Origin: Vampirovibrio sp.
GTDB lineage: Bacteria > Cyanobacteriota > Vampirovibrionia > Vampirovibrionales > Vampirovibrionaceae
Length of the DNA stretch: 64,000 bases
Direction of reading: 5' to 3'
Assembly (NCBI RefSeq): GCF_041737375.1
Contig: NZ_JBGSRV010000006.1
Location: 134,022-198,021 of the forward strand
Below the pieces are notes generated by a model. That model saw nothing but the letters and a program-made list of their open reading frames with translations, was not told where the DNA came from and made no database searches. The translations under genes and the position numbers were made by a program. Shown here piece by piece: positions 25,513-34,918 of this stretch. Each line of letters opens with the position of its first letter. The stretch's first letter is position 1.

Positions 25513-25588
<76 letters not shown>

Positions 25589-26776: not shown

Positions 26777-27493
26777 TCACTTAAAAATGCGTCTTAGGCG
26801 CCATAGAATGAAGCGTTCGGAGGGCAGGGTTTTATCGGTGTTTCTTAAGGTGTCAATCAGGGTGTTGGCTTCCAGTCGCAAGGGGGTGTTTTCTGTGGCT
26901 AACAGCACTTCGGGATAGTGGGCATTCAGCAGTAAAAGCACAATATGGCGGTCTTGTGAGAATTTTAAACGGCCAATAAACCCCAATTGATCCACCCCTT
27001 TGGGTTGAGCAATTTTTAAATTGGCCAACTGATTTTCAGCAGCGTTTGAGCGAAGGGGCTGGATTTTTAGCGAGATGGGGACCGAAAGGGGGCTAGCAAT
27101 TGGCATGGTTGGGCCCGCCTGGGTGAGCAGGGTTTTGGCAAGCCGCCCCAAATCCTCGGTTAAATAAAAAGAACGCTGATCAGCTTGGCGAATGTCAATG
27201 AGGATGACCTGAGACTGGGTTTTCGGGTTCTCTAAAAAAGCGTAAAACCCAACCGCCTCATTGGATGTCGTATTCAATGCTTGAGACGAGGTGGCCTCAT
27301 AAGGGGCGGGTAGGCCATTTGAAAAAATAGCATCCAGTGCGCTTTGATTCACCGGGCTGGATAAATCTGCCCAGCTGCTGGCAATAAGCGCTGCATGCAT
27401 CAGCAGGCCGGTAAAGCCGAGGGTGAGGCATAATTTTTTCATAGTGCCTAATGTATCACATCTTTTTTGAACGATGCCACCCAGGGCAAGCAC
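26777..27493 (-). CDS. Secreted hypothetical protein (signal peptide)
   Basis: MKKLCLTLGFTGLLMHAALIASSWA signal. No recognisable domain. Confidence 0.35.
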   Translation of the reverse strand: MLALGGIVQKRCDTLGTMKKLCLTLGFTGLLMHAALIASSWADLSSPVNQSALDAIFSNGLPAPYEATSSQALNTTSNEAVGFYAFLENPKTQSQVILIDIRQADQRSFYLTEDLGRLAKTLLTQAGPTMPIASPLSVPISLKIQPLRSNAAENQLANLKIAQPKGVDQLGFIGRLKFSQDRHIVLLLLNAHYPEVLLATENTPLRLEANTLIDTLRNTDKTLPSERFILWRLRRIFK

Positions 27494-27645
27494 GGCTGGG
27501 GGCGTTCTGGAAACGGGGCCATAGGCCCGTTGTTTCTGTTTGTTTGGAGAAAGCGGGGCATTCCGTTAGAATCAAACGCAAGCCCACTCGATTATTCTCA
27601 ACGAATGGATACTTTTACACGCGCTATTTTAATAAGGATGTAAGC

Positions 27646-28080
27646 ATGACCGATTATACGTTTGATATGCCCAAAGTGGTAGACACCCTGAACCGCATTG
27701 TGGAAATGGAACTGGCGGGTGTGGTTCGCTACACGCACTATTCCTTTATGGTGTTTGGCCCTAACCGTATTCCCATTACCTCCTGGCTGCGCGATCAGGC
27801 CAGTGAGTCTCTGGTTCACGCTCAGGAAAGCGGTGAGTTGATTACTTACCTGGGAGAACACCCATCGCTGGGCATTGGACAGCTCCTGGAAACCCACAAG
27901 CACGATATTTTCAGCATTCTGGAAGAGTCTCTCATTCATGAGTCCCGCCAAATGCAGCTGTATCAGGATTTGCTGGATTTGGTAAAAGACAAATCGGTGA
28001 TGTTTGAGGAGTTTGCCCGCCGCATGGTTGCCGAAGAGGAAACCCACATTGGCGAAGTTCGTAAAATGATGCGCAAGTAG
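27646..28080 (+). CDS. bfr: Bacterioferritin (ferritin-like diiron protein)
   Basis: VVDTLNRIVEMELAGVVRYTHYSFMVFG...EHP...EESLIHESRQ...EEETHIGEV follows the bacterioferritin helix/ligand pattern. The ORF track begins at 27451, but the ATG at 27646 fits the family length (144 aa). Confidence 0.7.
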   Translation: MTDYTFDMPKVVDTLNRIVEMELAGVVRYTHYSFMVFGPNRIPITSWLRDQASESLVHAQESGELITYLGEHPSLGIGQLLETHKHDIFSILEESLIHESRQMQLYQDLLDLVKDKSVMFEEFARRMVAEEETHIGEVRKMMRK

Positions 28081-28099
28081 AGCCTCCTCACTAAAAAAT

Positions 28100-28138
28100 G
28101 CCACCCGCACCCGTCTCACTGGCGGGTGCTTTGGTTTA
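28100..28138 (+). terminator. Rho-independent terminator after bfr (cacccgc-N12-gcgggtg + ctttggttt)
   Basis: 7-bp GC-rich stem followed by a U-rich tract. Confidence 0.5.
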
Positions 28139-28173
28139 AAAGCGGCAGTGGCCATGGCATGCCAAACAACCCC

Positions 28174-28207
28174 TTGACAGCAAAGTGGCAGTCTCGGCTA
28201 CTATATA
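28174..28207 (+). promoter_or_regulatory. Putative sigma70-type promoter of the trp operon (TTGACA ... TACTAT/TATATA)
   Basis: Exact TTGACA hexamer at 28174-79 and an A/T-rich TAcTAT -10 candidate ~19 nt downstream, ~35-40 nt before the leader ORF. Spacing is slightly long. Confidence 0.35.
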
Positions 28208-28241
28208 GTAGAATTAAAATCAGTTTAAAAAATAAGTATGG

Positions 28242-28340
28242 ATGATGATGCGTTTCCTGCAATCCCAACCGGCCAATTTAACACAGTGGTGGTGGCTTCG
28301 CCTAACTACTGGCCTGCCGTGCTGGGTTGATTGTCGTTAA
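28242..28340 (+). CDS. trpL: trp operon leader peptide (MMMRFLQSQPANLTQWWWLRLTTGLPCWVDCR) with three consecutive Trp codons
   Basis: A 32-codon ORF has TGG TGG TGG at 28287-28295 plus a fourth Trp. It lies 110 nt upstream of trpE and is followed by a terminator hairpin. Confidence 0.6.
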   Translation: MMMRFLQSQPANLTQWWWLRLTTGLPCWVDCR

Positions 28341-28373
28341 TCATCGTCATTCCTTCCCCACATTCCCAAGAGA

Positions 28374-28400
28374 GCAGGCCGCCGAGCCTGTTTTTGTGTT
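28374..28400 (+). terminator. Putative trp attenuator (caggc-N6-gcctg followed by TTTTTGTGTTTT)
   Basis: GC stem directly followed by a U-tract, placed between the leader peptide and the trpE start. Confidence 0.5.
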
Positions 28401-28453
28401 TTATTCCCATTTTTTAGTTTTCAAGTTTAAATTTTAAGCCATCGGAGTCCATT

Positions 28454-29920
28454 ATGCCCCTGACCATAGAAAGTTATCTCTCGGATACGGAAACCCCGGT
28501 GTCACTCTTTCATCGGCTCAACCTGTCTTTTCCCCTCATGTTTTTATTTGAAAGCACCGATGGCGATAACCGGGTGGGCCGCTTTTCCATTTTGGGGCTG
28601 GATCCGGTGTTGAGCTTTCGGCTGAAAAACGGAACCGCCATGATCCAAAACCATCGGGATGGTACCGAGCGGCTGGAATCTTGTACCGATCCCATGGCCC
28701 GCTTAAAAGCCTTGCAGGCCGAAACGCTGCCTGATATCACCCCGCTGCCCGCCTCGTTTGCCGATCTGCCGTTAAGTTCCGGCTGGGTGGGTTATATGGG
28801 TTATGGCACCACTCAGTACTTTGAGCAGATTCCTCAGCCGGAACAGGATGTGCTGAACGTTCCTGATATTTACATGGCCCTGTATGATTCGGTGATTGTG
28901 TTTGATCATTTGTACCGTCGCATTCATGTCATTTCTCACCGGGCCGAATTGGGCGCTCAGGCCCTTTTAAGCACCATTCAAACCGCCTTGCATCGGGAAA
29001 AACATGAGTTGCGCTTGCTGGCCTTGCCCGATATATCGGATGAGCGGGTGTTTGATTCGGTGCAATACGCTACCCCCAAGCCTCGCTTTCTGGAAGCCAT
29101 TCGACAAGCCAAACAATGGATTGTGGAAGGGCAGATTTTTCAAATTGTGCTGGCCCAGCGGTTCTCTCTACCGGTTCAATGCTCCACGCTGGATATTTAT
29201 CGCACGGTCACTGCCATCAATCCCTCCCCCTATGCATATTACCTCAAGTTCCCAGAGTTTACCTATCTGGGTTCTTCCCCAGAAACGTTTATACGCAGCC
29301 GAAACGGTCAGGTGACCTTGAAAGCCTTAGCCGGCACCCGGCCCCGAGGCACTTGCGAGCAAAGCGATCGGGCCTTGACCGATGAACTAAAAGCCAGCCG
29401 TAAAGAAATGGCGGAACACCGGATGCTGGTGGATCTGGGTCGAAACGATATGGGCCGCATCTGTCAGCCGGGAAGTATTGCGGTGGGGGAAATCGCCCAA
29501 ATTTTACGCTATACCCATGTCATGCATCTGGCCACTGAAATTCAGGGAACCTTAAAAGCGGGGTTAAATGGGTATGATGCCCTGAAATGTTGCTTTCCCC
29601 GTGGCACCGTGAGTGGGGCGCCTAAAATTCGGGCCCTGCAATTGCTGGCCAAACTGGAGCCAGAGCAGCGGGGTGTTTATTCCGGGATGGTGGGTTACAT
29701 TGATGCCAATGGCAACGCGGATGGGGCCATCGCCATTCGTTCCGCCCTGATTCAGGATGGCATGGCCCATATTCACGCAGGCGCAGGCATTGTGCATCAC
29801 TCGGAGCCTGAGGCGGAGTATGAAGAAACCCGAAATAAGGCAAAAAGCATGGTAAAAGCCATTCTGATGGCGGAAAGGATGAACGCCGATGTTAGCGCAA
29901 CGCCCCGTGGTGATTATTGA
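28454..29920 (+). CDS. trpE: Anthranilate synthase component I
   Basis: Chorismate-binding family C-terminus (GTVSGAPK, GAGIVHHSEPEAEYEETRNKA) and length of 488 aa. Confidence 0.9.
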   Translation: MPLTIESYLSDTETPVSLFHRLNLSFPLMFLFESTDGDNRVGRFSILGLDPVLSFRLKNGTAMIQNHRDGTERLESCTDPMARLKALQAETLPDITPLPASFADLPLSSGWVGYMGYGTTQYFEQIPQPEQDVLNVPDIYMALYDSVIVFDHLYRRIHVISHRAELGAQALLSTIQTALHREKHELRLLALPDISDERVFDSVQYATPKPRFLEAIRQAKQWIVEGQIFQIVLAQRFSLPVQCSTLDIYRTVTAINPSPYAYYLKFPEFTYLGSSPETFIRSRNGQVTLKALAGTRPRGTCEQSDRALTDELKASRKEMAEHRMLVDLGRNDMGRICQPGSIAVGEIAQILRYTHVMHLATEIQGTLKAGLNGYDALKCCFPRGTVSGAPKIRALQLLAKLEPEQRGVYSGMVGYIDANGNADGAIAIRSALIQDGMAHIHAGAGIVHHSEPEAEYEETRNKAKSMVKAILMAERMNADVSATPRGDY

Positions 29921-30491
29921 TAATTACGATTCGTTCAGTTACAACCTGTATCAGATGACACAGGTGGAAACTGAAGCCCCGGTAAAGATTTACCGGAATG
30001 ATCAAATTGATTTTGCCACCTTGCTGGCCAAAAAGCCGCAACGGGTCATTTTATCTCCCGGCCCCGGAAACCCGGCCATTGCAGCCGATTTTGGGGTTTG
30101 CGCTGATATTATTCAAAATCAGGCGGCGCTGGATTGTCCGGTTTTGGGGGTGTGTCTGGGGCATCAGGGCATTGCGCATTATTTGGGTGGCCGGGTTATT
30201 GCGGCCCCGGAAATCGTGCATGGCGAGAGCCGTTCCATGCAATGCGTAAGCGATAGTGGGTTGTTTAAAGATGTCCCTACAGTGTTTGAGGCCATGCGCT
30301 ATCATTCCCTGCTAGTGGATGAAAGCACCCTGCCGGAGGGGTTGGAAATTACGGTTCGAGATCTGGAAACTGCCATTCCTATGGCCATGCAGCATCGCAC
30401 CCGGCCCATTTTTGGCATTCAGTTTCACCCCGAATCCATTGGCACCCCTTATGGCAAACAGATTCTAAGGAATTTCCTGAACCTATGCTAA
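29889..30491 (+). CDS. trpG: Anthranilate synthase component II (glutamine amidotransferase)
   Basis: Class-I GATase motifs (GVCLGHQ, HPES). It overlaps trpE and trpD. Confidence 0.85.
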   Translation: MLAQRPVVIIDNYDSFSYNLYQMTQVETEAPVKIYRNDQIDFATLLAKKPQRVILSPGPGNPAIAADFGVCADIIQNQAALDCPVLGVCLGHQGIAHYLGGRVIAAPEIVHGESRSMQCVSDSGLFKDVPTVFEAMRYHSLLVDESTLPEGLEITVRDLETAIPMAMQHRTRPIFGIQFHPESIGTPYGKQILRNFLNLC

Positions 30492-31474
30492 ACCGTCAGG
30501 AGCTTCGCCAGCTCATTCATCTGGAATATTCGGAAGCGGATACCTTGCATTGGCTGGGGCAATTAACGCCCGAGGCAATCACCCCCGCTTTATTTTCCGA
30601 TGCGCTGGCTTGTCTGGAGGAAACCGTCTTGCCGGTTGCGCTTCCGGCGATGCCTGTGATGGATTGTTGTGGAACCGGTGGCAGTGGGCTGCCGCATTTT
30701 AATACCTCCACCACGGTGGCCTTTATTTTGGCGGCGGCGGGCGTGCCCGTCGTTAAATTTGGCAACCGGGGCTTGAGTAGCCTGAGCGGTAGTTTCGATT
30801 TGCTGGCCCAATTGGGCTTTTCAGCGCCACTGGATTTACGGCGAATTCCTGAAGGGCTGGCGCATTGTGGACTGGTTTTTCTATTTGCGCCGCAGTGCTA
30901 TCCTCAGTTGGCCCCCTTTAATCAATTGCGCCGTCAGCTTAAAACCAGAACCCTGTTTAACTTTTTGGGGCCATTGTTAAATCCGGTGAAACCAGCTTAT
31001 CGGTTGCTGGGCGTTTCTCATCCGCTTATGCAAACCCAAATGGCCCATTATTTGGCCAGCACCGGCGTTTGTCAGCGAGGCTGGATCGCTTGCGGGGAAT
31101 CCGGGCTGGATGAGCTGGAAATTGCTGCTCCCACCCGTGTTTTTGAGATTCAAAAAACGCACTATCAGGAAATGACCATTCCGCCTTTTGTAATAGAAAC
31201 TGAAACAGAAAATAATCCAGCTCTTCACCCTATCGGCCCACATAACCCGGTGGAGAATGAGGCCATTTTGATGCGCTTGTTTCAAAATCAGGATCAGCAA
31301 TCTCCTTACTATCAAATGGTGTGTTTCAATGCGGGAGCGGGCCTGTTGATTGCCGGAAAGGCAAGTTCTCTGGCGGCGGGGGTGCAAGAGGCCAAAGCCT
31401 TGCTGCGGGGTGGAAAAGCGTTGGAAAAATTGAATGAATGCCGGAGGTTTTATGAATCGTTTTCCACCCGGTAA
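30485..31474 (+). CDS. trpD: Anthranilate phosphoribosyltransferase
   Basis: The CCGTGGSG P-loop-like motif (DCCGTGGSG) and the family length. Confidence 0.85.
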   Translation: MLNRQELRQLIHLEYSEADTLHWLGQLTPEAITPALFSDALACLEETVLPVALPAMPVMDCCGTGGSGLPHFNTSTTVAFILAAAGVPVVKFGNRGLSSLSGSFDLLAQLGFSAPLDLRRIPEGLAHCGLVFLFAPQCYPQLAPFNQLRRQLKTRTLFNFLGPLLNPVKPAYRLLGVSHPLMQTQMAHYLASTGVCQRGWIACGESGLDELEIAAPTRVFEIQKTHYQEMTIPPFVIETETENNPALHPIGPHNPVENEAILMRLFQNQDQQSPYYQMVCFNAGAGLLIAGKASSLAAGVQEAKALLRGGKALEKLNECRRFYESFSTR

Positions 31475-32249
31475 GGTACTGGATACCATTGTGGCCCACA
31501 AAATTCAGGAGGTGGCCGCACGCAAGGCCCAGCTTCCCTTGGCAGACTTTCTACCGCAGCTGCAGAAAATTACCTCTCAACCTTTGGAAACCGCCATTCG
31601 GCAATCGGCGGGTAAAAGCGCTTTTATTTTAGAAATCAAACCGGCCTCGCCCTCTGCGGGCCAATTGAAAGCTACTCTGGATTTAGATCCGTTACTGGCC
31701 CTGTACACGCAGTATGGGGCCGCCATTTCGGTACTAACCGATCAAACTTATTTTGGAGGGAGTTTGGGGTTACTGCAACAGGTGGCGAAGCAGGTTTCTT
31801 TGCCGACCTTGTGCAAGGATTTTGTGATGGATCCCTATCAGGTTTATGAAGCCCGAAAAGCAGGGGCCCAAGCGGTTTTACTGATTGTGAAAGCCCTCAG
31901 TGATTCGCAGTTGAGCCTGCTGAATCAGTTGATTTTGGACTGGGGCATGACCCCCTTGATTGAAGTGCAGGATGAAGCGGAAGTGGATCGGGCTTTGGCG
32001 GTGAACCCGTCGATTTTGCTCATTAATAACCGGGATCTGCAAACGCTGACCATGGATCTCTCCACCACCCATCGGTTGGCGCCCCGTATTCCAGATTCTG
32101 TTTTAAAAATTTCGGCCAGCGGCATGCAAACGCGGGAAGATATTTTGCGGCTTCAGGATTATTGCGATGGCTTTTTAATTGGCTCTACCCTCATGCGGGA
32201 GCCGACCCCCCTGGCGTTGGAAAAAAAGTTACAGGGCCTACTGACATGA
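31434..32249 (+). CDS. trpC: Indole-3-glycerol phosphate synthase
   Basis: IGPS TIM-barrel motifs (LEIKPASPS, LINNRDL). Confidence 0.8.
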   Translation: MNAGGFMNRFPPGKVLDTIVAHKIQEVAARKAQLPLADFLPQLQKITSQPLETAIRQSAGKSAFILEIKPASPSAGQLKATLDLDPLLALYTQYGAAISVLTDQTYFGGSLGLLQQVAKQVSLPTLCKDFVMDPYQVYEARKAGAQAVLLIVKALSDSQLSLLNQLILDWGMTPLIEVQDEAEVDRALAVNPSILLINNRDLQTLTMDLSTTHRLAPRIPDSVLKISASGMQTREDILRLQDYCDGFLIGSTLMREPTPLALEKKLQGLLT

Positions 32250-32938
32250 CCCCACCTGTGGTTAAAATTTGCGGAATTACCAATGTGTCCGATGCCATGG
32301 CCGCCATTCAAGCGGGTGCGGATTGGCTGGGCTTTATTTTTGTACCAGACACGCCCCGGTTTATTACCGTGGAAACTGCCCAGGCGATTCTGCAAGCGGT
32401 GCGATCCCAAAGTCCCCCAACACAATGTGTAGGGGTGTTTCAAAATGCCAGTGCGGAAACCATTCAAGCGCATTGGGCTGCCTTGGGGCTGGATCAAATT
32501 CAGTTGCACGGCGATGAAACGCCTGCCTTCTGCGAGCAATTACCCGCTCCGGTGATCAAAACCCTGTTGCTGCAACCACATTTATCTTTCTCAAATTTGA
32601 GCACCACCGCAATGGCTTACTTGCAAGCGAACAATGTGAAAACCCTACTGCTGGATTTACCCAAAAACAGTGCGGTGAAAGCGGTGGGAAGCTTGCCTGA
32701 TGCTGTGGGCTTAAGGTCGTTTTTATCCACCTTTCCCAGTTTGTTGGCGGGGGGGGTAACGGCGGATAATCTCCAGAGCGTATTGGAGCAATTTCAGCCG
32801 GTGGGGGTGGATGTGGCCTCTGGGGTTGAACAAGCGCCCGGACAAAAAGATGTAGAAAAGATGAATCGTTTTTGCCAAATCATTCAAAATTTTAAATCGC
32901 AACCCAACCATGGAGATCCTTTGTCATGCAATCCCTAG
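32246..32938 (+). CDS. trpF: Phosphoribosylanthranilate isomerase
   Basis: [12 protein letters not shown]... is a PRAI N-terminus. The ATG at 32246 overlaps the trpC stop (ATGA). Confidence 0.75.
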
Positions 32939-34110
32939 GTTTTTTTGGCCCCTATGGGGGCATTTATGTACCAGAGCTGTTAATGCCAGCCCTGGAAGAA
33001 CTGGAAGCCGCCTTTTTGAATATTCAAGATGATGCGGATTTTCTGGCGGAATATCAATCGTTGCTGAAGCATTATGCAGGTCGTCCTACACCGCTGTATG
33101 AGGCCAAAAATTTATCTAAATTGTATGGCGCGCGTGTTTTTTTAAAGCGGGAAGACTTGCTGCACGGGGGCGCTCATAAAACCAACAATGCCATTGGGCA
33201 AGCCTTGCTGGCAAAAGCCATGGGGAAAACCCGGCTGATTGCCGAAACCGGGGCTGGTCAACACGGTGTCGCCACGGCCATGGCCGGTGCCTTGCTGGGC
33301 ATGAAAACCGAAGTGTACATGGGCGCCGTAGATATGGAGCGCCAGCAACCCAATGTATTTCGGATGCGGTTGTTGGGGGCCACGGTTCATGCGGTGGAAA
33401 CCGGTTCCAAAACCTTGAAGGATGCCATTAATGAGGCCCTTCGAGATTGGGTCAGCAATTTGGGAGATACCTATTACCTCATTGGCACGGCTGCCGGGCC
33501 TCATCCTTACCCCACGCTGGTGCGCTTTTTTCAGCAGGTAATTGGAGAAGAAGCCCATCAGCAAATGCTGGCCCAGGCGGGTCGATTGCCGGATAAAGTA
33601 GTGGCCTGTGTGGGTGGGGGCTCCAATGCCATTGGTATTTTTCAGGGGTTTAGAAATACCTCGGCCCAATTGATTGGGGTGGAACCCGCTGGTTTGGGCT
33701 TGGAGACGCCTCATCACGGGGCGGTTTTGGCCAAGGGAACGCTTGGTTGTTTGCATGGCATGAAAAGTTTGGCGTTGCAGGATAGGGATGGTCAGGTTCA
33801 TGAAACCTATAGTATGGCTGCCGGACTGGATTACCCGCTGGTTGGGCCGGAGCATGCCTATATGCAATCCACGGGGGAAGCCACTTATGTTTCCGCTACC
33901 GATGCCGAGGCACTGGCTGCTTTTCATACGCTGGCCAAAGCGGAAGGGATTTTGCCCGCTCTGGAAACCTGCCACGCATTGGCGTACGCTGAGGTGCTGG
34001 CCAAAACCATGTCTCCCGATCAAATTATTTTAATTAACTTGTCGGGTCGTGGGGATAAAGATCTGCATCAGGTAATGGCCCAACAGGAGAACGCTCATGT
34101 CCACGCTTAA
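32926..34110 (+). CDS. trpB: Tryptophan synthase beta chain
   Basis: The PLP-lysine region [16 protein letters not shown], the GGGSNAIG motif, and 394 aa. Confidence 0.9.
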
Positions 34111-34918
34111 ACTGCAAAATCAGCAGCGTTATGAAAAACGATTCGCGCAATTAAAACAGGAAAACCGGCATGCCATGATTCCGTTTATTTTGTTAGGCTG
34201 GCCCAACCCGGAAGTTTGTTTGAGCATGATTGATGCCTTTATCGCAGGCGGGGCCAGCGCTTTGGAATTGGGGATTTCTTTCAGCGATCCGGTGGCGGAT
34301 GGTCCACTCATTCAGCAAGCGGCCCGTGAAACCATGGATGCTGGCTTTGATGTGGATCAGGCGATTGTATTGATTCGAAAAATTCGGGAGAAACACCCGG
34401 AAACGCCCATCAGTTTACTGGTTTATTACAATTTGGTGTTGGCCCGTGGGGTGGAAAAATTTTGTAGCGATATCGCCGCCGCAGGCGTGGATGCGCTTTT
34501 AATTGCCGACTTGCCGGTGGAGTGCATCGCTGAAATCAAGCCTGCCATAGATGCTTGTGGCCTACAGCTCACTTCTTTAATTTCCACCCTCACTGATCAG
34601 AGCCGCTTGCCAAGCATTGTTGAACACTCAGGCGGGTTTTTATATGCCGTTTCCCGCTTGGGCGTAACGGGTGTGGAGGAACGCTATGATTCAGGTCTGG
34701 GCGAGTTGTTGAGCCGGGTTCGCGCTTACTCGGATTTACCGGTTTGTGTGGGCTTTGGTATTTCCCAGCGGACGCATGTGGAGGCCATGGTGAAGCTGGG
34801 AGCGGACGGCGTAATTGTAGGCTCTTCCGTGATGTCAAAAATTAAGGCCTTGGCCCCGGCGTATGCCACGGCGTCCATCGTGTCTTATATTCGGGATCTA
34901 TCAGCGCCCGTTGTTTAG
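34097..34918 (+). CDS. trpA: Tryptophan synthase alpha chain
   Basis: TrpA TIM-barrel motifs ([20 protein letters not shown]). Overlaps trpB. Confidence 0.85.

Follow-up and report, generated by a model that had tools for sequence, protein, structure and literature searches.

The classical tryptophan attenuator is that of Escherichia coli trpL (Rfam RF00513), in which a short open reading frame (ORF) with tandem Trp codons, a hairpin that holds those codons, a segment able to pair with the 5′ arm of the terminator, and the terminator itself are found before trpE. Classical Trp attenuators also precede trpE(G) in Sinorhizobium meliloti, where the released leader RNA and peptide (rnTrpL and peTrpL) have demonstrated functions in trans (PMC6614838, PMC7298713). 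The actinobacterial trp attenuators, such as Corynebacterium glutamicum trpL and Streptomyces venezuelae trpEG, are lineage-specific and carry WWW-type runs before trpE; most were identified by comparing genomes, and the experimental support for them is limited (PMC1262725; PMC4833913). The Bacteroid-trp leader (RF01692; PMC2864571) is a phylum-specific Trp leader, defined computationally, that lies outside the Proteobacteria. Here we analysed a 64,000-nt stretch of DNA from Vampirovibrio sp. (contig NZ_JBGSRV010000006.1, positions 134,022 to 198,021; hereafter the window, numbered from its first letter), whose host lineage is Candidatus Melainabacteria (Vampirovibrionia), order Vampirovibrionales. 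It contains a trpEGDCFBA operon preceded by a leader that shares the general plan of these systems and differs from each of them.

From its sequence elements, their conservation and modelled folds, we consider it very probable that trpEGDCFBA is controlled by a ribosome-mediated (leader-peptide) transcription attenuator. An earlier note, made from the sequence alone, had proposed as much, and the proposal holds up well: the ORF with its Trp codons, the terminator and the antiterminator are present and are conserved in syntenic relatives, and terminator and antiterminator covary. The leader ORF (MMMRFLQSQPANLTQWWWLRLTTGLPCWVDCR; 28242..28340 on the + strand, with a TAA stop at 28338-40) has 32 codons, in-frame ATGs at 28242, 28245 and 28248, three consecutive TGG codons at 28287..28295 (+) that form the proposed stall site, and a fourth TGG at 28323-25. 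The earlier note had read the ORF and all four Trp codons correctly; its placement of the ORF upstream of trpE also stands, the distance from leader stop to trpE start (28454) being 113 nt rather than the 110 nt given. An intrinsic terminator follows at 28370..28395 (+), identified by a terminator scan and by the minimum-free-energy (MFE) fold, and this agrees with the GC hairpin and U-tract that had been placed at 28374-28400. Its stem is followed by GTGTTTTATT, with a T-rich tail extending to ~28405. The core runs from C75-G90 to C79-G86 with the loop CGCCGA, and its energy is about -13 kcal/mol when the A-U/G-U extension (GAGAG paired with UUUUU) is included.

The core of region 2, GGCCUGC (28311..28317, +), is perfectly complementary to region 3, GCAGGCC (28374..28380, +), and these form the 5′ and 3′ strands of a helix that we call AT-1. 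Region 3 doubles as the core of the terminator 5′ arm. In a second helix, AT-2, UGGG (28323..28326, +), which includes the fourth TGG, pairs with CCCA (28357..28360, +). The latter was assigned by homology with the CCCAG of relatives (columns 80-84 of alignment A8, see below), and a second CCCA at 28365-68 is the partner preferred by the energy model. AT-1 forms in truncated and in ribosome-stalled folds. The Trp codons are held in hairpin H4 (28285..28310, +), a "1:2" or possible pause hairpin of the MFE fold in which 28285-94 pair with 28299-28310, and region 2 begins directly after it. The last Trp codon lies 18 nt from region 2, comparable to the spacing of ~18 nt in E. coli trpL. Of the alternative folds that the earlier note suggested looking for, the antiterminator does pair with the terminator 5′ arm; it does not overlap the WWW codons, which are held by H4, and H4 in turn abuts the antiterminator strand. 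Duplex z-scores for region 2 versus region 3 are modest, with a mean of -2.3, since shuffled sequences gain in score from long interior loops.

Several features separate this leader from E. coli trpL. No sequence or structure homology is detectable, and the RF00513 model gives no match even at E = 10; there are three Trp codons versus two. The leader stop falls 21 nt past region 2, whereas that of E. coli is located just before region 2. Finally, the antiterminator is in two parts, the ORF is folded along its whole width into a rod with a helix that joins the start to post-stop sequence, and no Shine-Dalgarno sequence is evident. In one Obscuribacterales locus (L012:2754-2774) the leader TAA lies directly before region 2 (WWRKSQ-stop) in the E. 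coli manner, and in every other locus the frame continues across region 2. Where the stop codon falls has thus been flexible in evolution. Unlike the actinobacterial attenuators, which belong to another phylum and have unrelated sequences, the melainabacterial leaders form a family that spans a whole class, with variants of GCAGGC throughout. The Bacteroid-trp leader differs in lineage and structure, and its covariance model has no match here.

We propose that the leader would operate as follows. Transcription would begin at ~28211 from TTGACA-N19-TACTAT, and a ribosome would start on the leader ORF of 30-32 codons. With charged tRNA-Trp scarce, the ribosome would stall at WWW (28287-95), where it would sit on the 5′ strand of H4 and keep the 5′ half of the leader from its 3′ half. 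Region 2 (28311-17 plus the UGGG at 28323-26), free beyond the ribosome edge, would then pair with newly made GCAGGCC (28374-80) and with the CCCA upstream of it, and the resulting antiterminator would use up the terminator 5′ arm and let RNA polymerase continue into trpE. With Trp plentiful, the ribosome would cross region 2 to the stop at 28338 and be released, and the ORF would refold, H4 forming first, then the rod helices H3 and H2, and then P0, the helix that closes the rod. Region 2 would be held in the rod or insulated by it, so that the terminator at 28370-95 could form and transcription would stop in the T-run. The outcome would be decided by kinetic competition.

The arrangement is kept among relatives. 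Our comparison covered 33 melainabacterial genome loci with upstream sequence and ten further metagenomic loci (L172, L175-L180, L183-L185), which makes 43. An ORF with WW or WWW and a terminator precede the operon in all 43 of these loci with enough upstream DNA, in two orders, and a hairpin with a T-run is located 55-125 nt past the Trp codons in every one. The ten further relatives have TrpE proteins 64-91% identical to that of the window where trpE is on the contig; the L172 contig ends before it. In 32 of the 33 genome loci the Trp-codon ORF lies 150-320 nt 5′ of trpE. In the 33rd (L006), and also in L185, leader and terminator precede a gene for 3-deoxy-D-arabino-heptulosonate 7-phosphate (DAHP) synthase that is itself located before trpE. 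These two loci represent two Vampirovibrionaceae lineages (L006, leader 1934-2090 and gene 2081-2989; L185, leader 1146-1300 and gene 1339-2190), and in them the attenuator would govern the entry step of aromatic amino-acid synthesis as well. The earlier note had named a lack of conservation of the leader ORF in syntenic relatives among the findings that would refute attenuation; a homologous ORF is present in all relatives. The gene 5′ of the leader varies among relatives (ferritin, response regulator, aminotransferase), and the element therefore travels with the operon.

These data bear on the simplest alternative, that an ordinary intergenic terminator happens to follow a fortuitous small ORF. 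Small ORFs are everywhere, and TGGTGGTGG is common in the window, with 9 copies versus 0.7 expected from shuffles, so that the Trp triplet alone proves nothing and the case rests on context and conservation. The combination, in turn, is kept in 43/43 loci of two orders despite changing neighbours, and its terminator and antiterminator covary. The conservation data refute coincidence, to which we attach a negligible probability. The TGGTGGTGG copies are all on the + strand, at 1779, 12793, 15782, 28287, 35596, 36085, 40959, 49968 and 49971, and their excess may reflect the usage of codons or repeats within genes.

To assess the pairings we aligned 12 Vampirovibrionaceae leaders with plain MAFFT (alignment A8). 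AT-1 was paired in 97.6% of cells, with one pair series C-G / U.G / U-A; AT-2 in 93.3%, with 2 compensatory pairs; and H4 in 88%, with 1 compensatory pair, against 31-49% for slid controls of these three helices. In H4, 9 of 10 pairs vary among the 12 leaders yet stay paired. The terminator was paired in 97.5% (slid controls 38-57%), with 3 compensatory pairs. A second alignment of 23 Obscuribacterales sequences was fitted with a model that knew only the terminator. In it the terminator was 90.3% paired, with 5 compensatory pairs, and the antiterminator was paired in 76.8% of cells, with 4 compensatory pairs; slid controls gave 24-46%, and none of 500 shuffles was as good. Seven of the sequences are shifted by one column in register, this antiterminator figure notwithstanding.

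Individual positions change together in three places. Obscuribacterales column 131, which lies in region 3 and is G or A, covaries with both of its partners, the one in region 2 (C/U) and the one in the terminator 3′ arm (C/U), and the three-way change in L183 reads CCACAGGC, CCUGUGG and GCCUGU. Since this three-way covariation of region 2, region 3 and the terminator 3′ arm is seen in both orders, both alternative helices are supported at once, and it constitutes clean comparative evidence for alternative RNA structures. RNAalifold applied to a truncated class-wide alignment recovered only a 5-bp helix between the Trp codons and region 2, a poor recovery explained by the two orders being out of register by one column.

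We also searched beyond the trp loci of known relatives. Two covariance models (R1 and R2) link the Vampirovibrio genus, other Vampirovibrionales and, weakly, the Obscuribacterales; they find one copy in the window and have no match in control loci from other phyla. A metagenome protein scan with the TrpE N-terminus gave no matches. A metagenome scan with a DNA pattern returned 120 stretches, among which the only real leaders were L172, a close relative, and L146 (6989-7132 of Ga0316576_10001046, a contig of a Desulfobacterales metagenome-assembled genome, MAG). L146 has a WWW leader (MYRKPNTRMSSWWWQADITGPADGSSCV) and a strong terminator ~320 nt 5′ of trpE. Its TrpE is 100% identical to a protein from a "Deltaproteobacteria bacterium" MAG and 39% identical to that of the window. 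It shares with the window the WWW leader ORF, the GCCUGC by GCAGGC antiterminator logic and the terminator before the trpE operon, and its detection is owed solely to the search pattern, which required these motifs. R2, the model of the Vampirovibrionaceae, has no match in L146, and as judged from sequence its leader is probably convergent with the melainabacterial one.

Sequence conservation of region 3 is unusually strong. GCAGGC, in most lineages as CCGCAGGC, is invariant in A8 and reappears in variant form throughout the class. Two peptide motifs, TGLP.W and PGK..PGW, which are translations of the antiterminator pairing strands, recur as well. Such strong class-wide conservation of region 3 and of the C-terminal half of the peptide would be explained if the attenuator were real and the terminated leader RNA or the peptide acted in trans in addition, on the model and precedent of Sinorhizobium rnTrpL/peTrpL (PMC6614838, PMC7298713). 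The seven differences between the window and L172 would also fit a conserved peptide, as most of them (5/7, counted by eye) fall at third codon positions. Over nine Vampirovibrio-like leaders, however, third positions account for 10 of 30 substitutions, which is no excess (p = 0.57), and the conserved nucleotides are exactly those with two partners, in region 2 and in the terminator 3′ arm, a dual constraint that by itself slows change. Trans functions are demonstrated in S. meliloti and none is indicated for the Vampirovibrio leader, for which no trans target was sought or found, and we regard this extension as unlikely. Protein-level selection on the leader peptide was considered and rejected, third-position bias being absent. 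Apart from its Trp codons, the peptide sequence is probably irrelevant.

The end of the peptide invites another interpretation, in which nascent-peptide arrest of the TnaC kind senses free Trp, or translation is the regulated step, in place of stalling for tRNA-Trp. Many relatives have a conserved Trp near the peptide C-terminus (..GW / PGW-stop), the stop codon is well past region 2, and in modelled folds a ribosome at the stop codon does shift the balance. Arrest at high Trp would nonetheless tip it towards the antiterminator, the opposite of what a biosynthetic operon requires. Several lineages (L005, L043, L007 and the L018 group) lack the C-terminal motif; the 10/30 count speaks against purifying selection on the protein, and conservation coincides with the RNA pairing strands. 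As to translational control, a hairpin with a T-run located 58 nt 5′ of trpE cannot occlude the trpE Shine-Dalgarno sequence (GGAG, 28443-46). We consider these explanations very unlikely.

Less probable still is a protein- or tRNA-mediated switch (TRAP-like, T-box-like or by another factor) acting on a leader whose small ORF is untranslated. The leader Shine-Dalgarno is weak or absent, some relatives lack the ATG, and UGG could serve as a T-box specifier. In the window and 18 relatives, Rfam at gathering score found only tRNAs, with no Trp_leader (RF00513), Bacteroid-trp (RF01692) or T-box (RF00230), and when 28050-28520 was scanned permissively (E up to 10), nothing beyond chance matches to unrelated families came up. 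An array of the TRAP type (~9-11 (G/U)AG repeats, 2-3 nt apart) is absent; seven (G/T)AG triplets are scattered in 28200-28453, with no run of even three at that spacing. The Trp frame, moreover, is uninterrupted between a plausible start and a stop in most loci, and relatives keep it, with extra Trp codons in frame (WWTWW in L010, WW..WW in L022, WWWW in L183); TGGTGG is invariant across 33 aligned leaders, and the Trp codons occupy the energetically optimal stall position, as described next.

We modelled the proposed stalling in two ways. In the stall model, RNA 5′ of the leading edge of the stalled ribosome is unavailable for pairing. The terminator advantage of the window leader falls from 11.7 kcal/mol when free to 3.6, 0.9 and 0.8 kcal/mol with the ribosome at the first, second and third Trp codon, and the antiterminator becomes the MFE structure. 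Across the 33 genome loci the mean advantage falls from 12.3 to ~7 kcal/mol and the shift exceeds 2 kcal/mol in 31, a count that, like others of its kind, comes from phylogenetically related loci and is not made up of independent cases. When every codon was scanned as a stall site, the Trp codons were within 1 kcal/mol of the optimum in 31/33 loci. In the window the terminator advantage is partly regained one codon (R) past the last of these positions (4.1 kcal/mol) and is back at 9-12 kcal/mol two codons past it (9.2 kcal/mol), as region 2 is by then drawn into the ribosome. In the stall model, a ribosome that has reached the stop codon also keeps regions 2 and 3 apart, and the rod re-forms after release. 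The second, simpler model forces the ribosome footprint to be single-stranded and folds the RNA to equilibrium.

A number of observations, along with the relatedness of the loci just mentioned, weigh against attenuation as we propose it. Footprint masks do not separate starved from replete states: at full length the terminator wins in every state, in truncated RNA the antiterminator forms in all states, even with a ribosome at the stop codon, and in the window it is a ribosome at the stop codon that reduces the terminator advantage most (4.8 versus 10.6-11.8 kcal/mol). As modelled, the switch would appear only if a helix cannot enclose the ribosome, or if release and rod folding are fast. The terminator core of the window is 5 bp only. 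H4 overlaps region 2 by only 1 nt in the window, which makes the anti-antiterminator weaker than in L001 or L172, and sequestration of region 2 would rely on the topology of the rod. With the leader stop 21 nt past the region 2 core, a terminating ribosome leaves region 2 uncovered, in contrast to E. coli. The AT-1 core is nearly invariant in the genus and shows little covariation there. Finally, the leader ORF lacks a clear Shine-Dalgarno sequence and its start is ambiguous: 8 of the 33 genome relatives have no in-frame ATG, most of these would need TTG or GTG, the start candidate was picked by eye in most of them, and in L024 there is none near the Trp codons.

In the window the start may be the third ATG (28248), which leaves 13 codons before WWW, matching V. 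chlorellavorus. A second ORF (28238-28330, MDDDAFP...), shifted by -1 from the Trp frame, overlaps the leader. Gene callers (Logan / JGI) left the leader ORF unannotated in all eleven retrieved contigs (L175-L185).

The MFE fold of the free leader is a rod, made of the ORF folded on itself, followed by the terminator. H4 is its apical hairpin, H3 (28269-73 with 28321-25) and H2 (28259-64 with 28329-34) continue it, and P0 closes it in the MFE fold. The P0 5′ strand, GGAUGAUGAUG (28240..28250, +), spans all three start codons and pairs with the 3′ strand, CAUCGUCAUUC (28342..28352, +), which is located just past the leader stop. Start-by-stop helices with differing sequences are found in most Vampirovibrionales, for example in L001 (AUGCUUUCAA with UUGAAAGCAU), L180 (CGAAUGAAC with GUUCAUUCG) and L006 (UGGAAACG with UGUUUCCA), and in the Desulfobacterales leader L146. 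Cognate P0 strands pair better than non-cognate ones (permutation p = 0.0003 with Watson-Crick pairs only and 0.006 with G-U allowed, n = 15). The helix is not evident in L176 and L179 and is inconsistent in Obscuribacterales. The fold z-score of the ORF region is -2.5 in the window, but the mean is -0.7, and the strength of the fold is not general. We regard rod and P0 as a supported but secondary feature. P0 would be the base of an ORF-wide anti-antiterminator, and it may also block re-initiation on the leader.

These observations suggest a bolder interpretation that we put forward tentatively and think somewhat doubtful. The melainabacterial trp attenuator might have a distinct architecture that predates the split of Vampirovibrionales and Obscuribacterales, in which the anti-antiterminator is not a local 1:2 hairpin and is instead the whole ORF, zipped into a rod closed by the start-by-stop helix. 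Termination would then need ribosome release and ORF-wide refolding, which would also shut off re-initiation, and a stalled ribosome would split the rod. If so, leader-peptide attenuation would also be documented here for the first time in the Cyanobacteriota/Melainabacteria group, and the question would be whether oxygenic cyanobacteria lost it. In any case, the ORF-spanning start-by-stop helix is a testable variation on the classical design. The rod, the stop past region 2, the two-part antiterminator, the missing Shine-Dalgarno sequence and the 19-nt promoter spacer are architectural peculiarities of this leader.

The putative trp promoter has a -35 hexamer TTGACA at 28174..28179 (+), read directly from the sequence where the earlier note had reported it, and a candidate -10 hexamer TACTAT at 28199..28204 (+), 19 nt past the -35; the transcription start near 28211 is extrapolated from these elements. 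CTTGACA is invariant in L001-3, L172 and L175-L180 with unconserved flanks, and TTGACA-N19-TAnnAT (in one case TAnnAG) is kept in most of these Vampirovibrio-like loci around a spacer of variable sequence; at N19, L179 lacks a clean -10 match. With 19 nt the spacer exceeds the E. coli consensus length of 16-18 nt, and a scan for E. coli-type promoters with 16-18 nt spacing did not list TTGACA-N19-TACTAT.

The melainabacterial Trp leader is a new RNA family, found in every related locus that we examined across two orders; the mechanism itself is not new. In our searches of the literature we came across no account of attenuation in Melainabacteria, and a 2016 survey reported "no reliable data" on attenuation in cyanobacteria (PMC4833913). 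The leader extends textbook leader-peptide attenuation to the Melainabacteria (Vampirovibrionia), a sister lineage of the cyanobacteria that does not photosynthesise. The earlier note had thought the element worth attention as lying outside Proteobacteria and Actinobacteria, and its Vampirovibrio host bears this out. With the RNA family absent from Rfam and the leader ORF uncalled, it is invisible to current annotation. V. chlorellavorus is reported to synthesise only 15 amino acids, Trp among them (PMC4451040), and Trp-responsive control of a retained pathway is in keeping with a lifestyle in which periods of feeding on algal prey alternate with free existence. Soil MAGs from TPA records (L004, L014, L015, L016, L023 and L009) are labelled Oculatellaceae, Drouetiella, Planktothrix and, in one case, "Actinobacteria bacterium"; their trp operons and leaders are almost the same as in MAGs of Obscuribacterales or Vampirovibrionales, and these taxonomic labels look unreliable.

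The leader lies in the region 28085-28460, between trpE and a ferritin-like gene (27451-28080, Pfam Ferritin match). A terminator with a 9-pair stem at 28107..28129 (+), found by the terminator scan, belongs to the ferritin-like gene and is the 5′ limit of the trp control region. NCBIfam models assign the seven operon genes, all on the + strand: trpE (28454..29920; anthranilate synthase component I, E = 2e-144), trpG (29889..30491; TIGR00566, above cut-off), trpD (30485..31474; TIGR01245, above cut-off), trpC (31434..32249; indole-3-glycerol phosphate synthase models, E to 1e-76), trpF (32162..32938 as the longest ORF; phosphoribosylanthranilate isomerase models, E = 9e-54), trpB (32926..34110; TIGR00263, 597 bits) and trpA (34097..34918; TIGR00262, 257 bits). 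The full biosynthetic operon with overlapping genes that had been described is thus found, in the order trpE, G, D, C, F, B, A and with overlapping ends. For trpF, in which the family match covers residues from 33 onwards, the true start is probably near 32258. The window TrpE shares 100% identity with an NCBI "Vampirovibrio sp." protein and ~80% with TrpE of V. chlorellavorus; an exact-sequence look-up of it returned no record.

A scan of the window for small ORFs with residue runs, together with the two covariance models, revealed no other attenuators. The sole Rfam match in the 64 kb is a tRNA-Thr (anticodon CGU) at 25513-25588 (+), ~2.6 kb 5′ of the trp leader. Farther downstream, positions 54001-58000 have a GC content of 0.38-0.40 versus 0.487 overall, and the last 6 kb (58000-64000) are poor in ORFs of more than 150 aa; the low-GC segment at 54-58 kb or the ORF-poor end of the window could represent foreign or degraded DNA.

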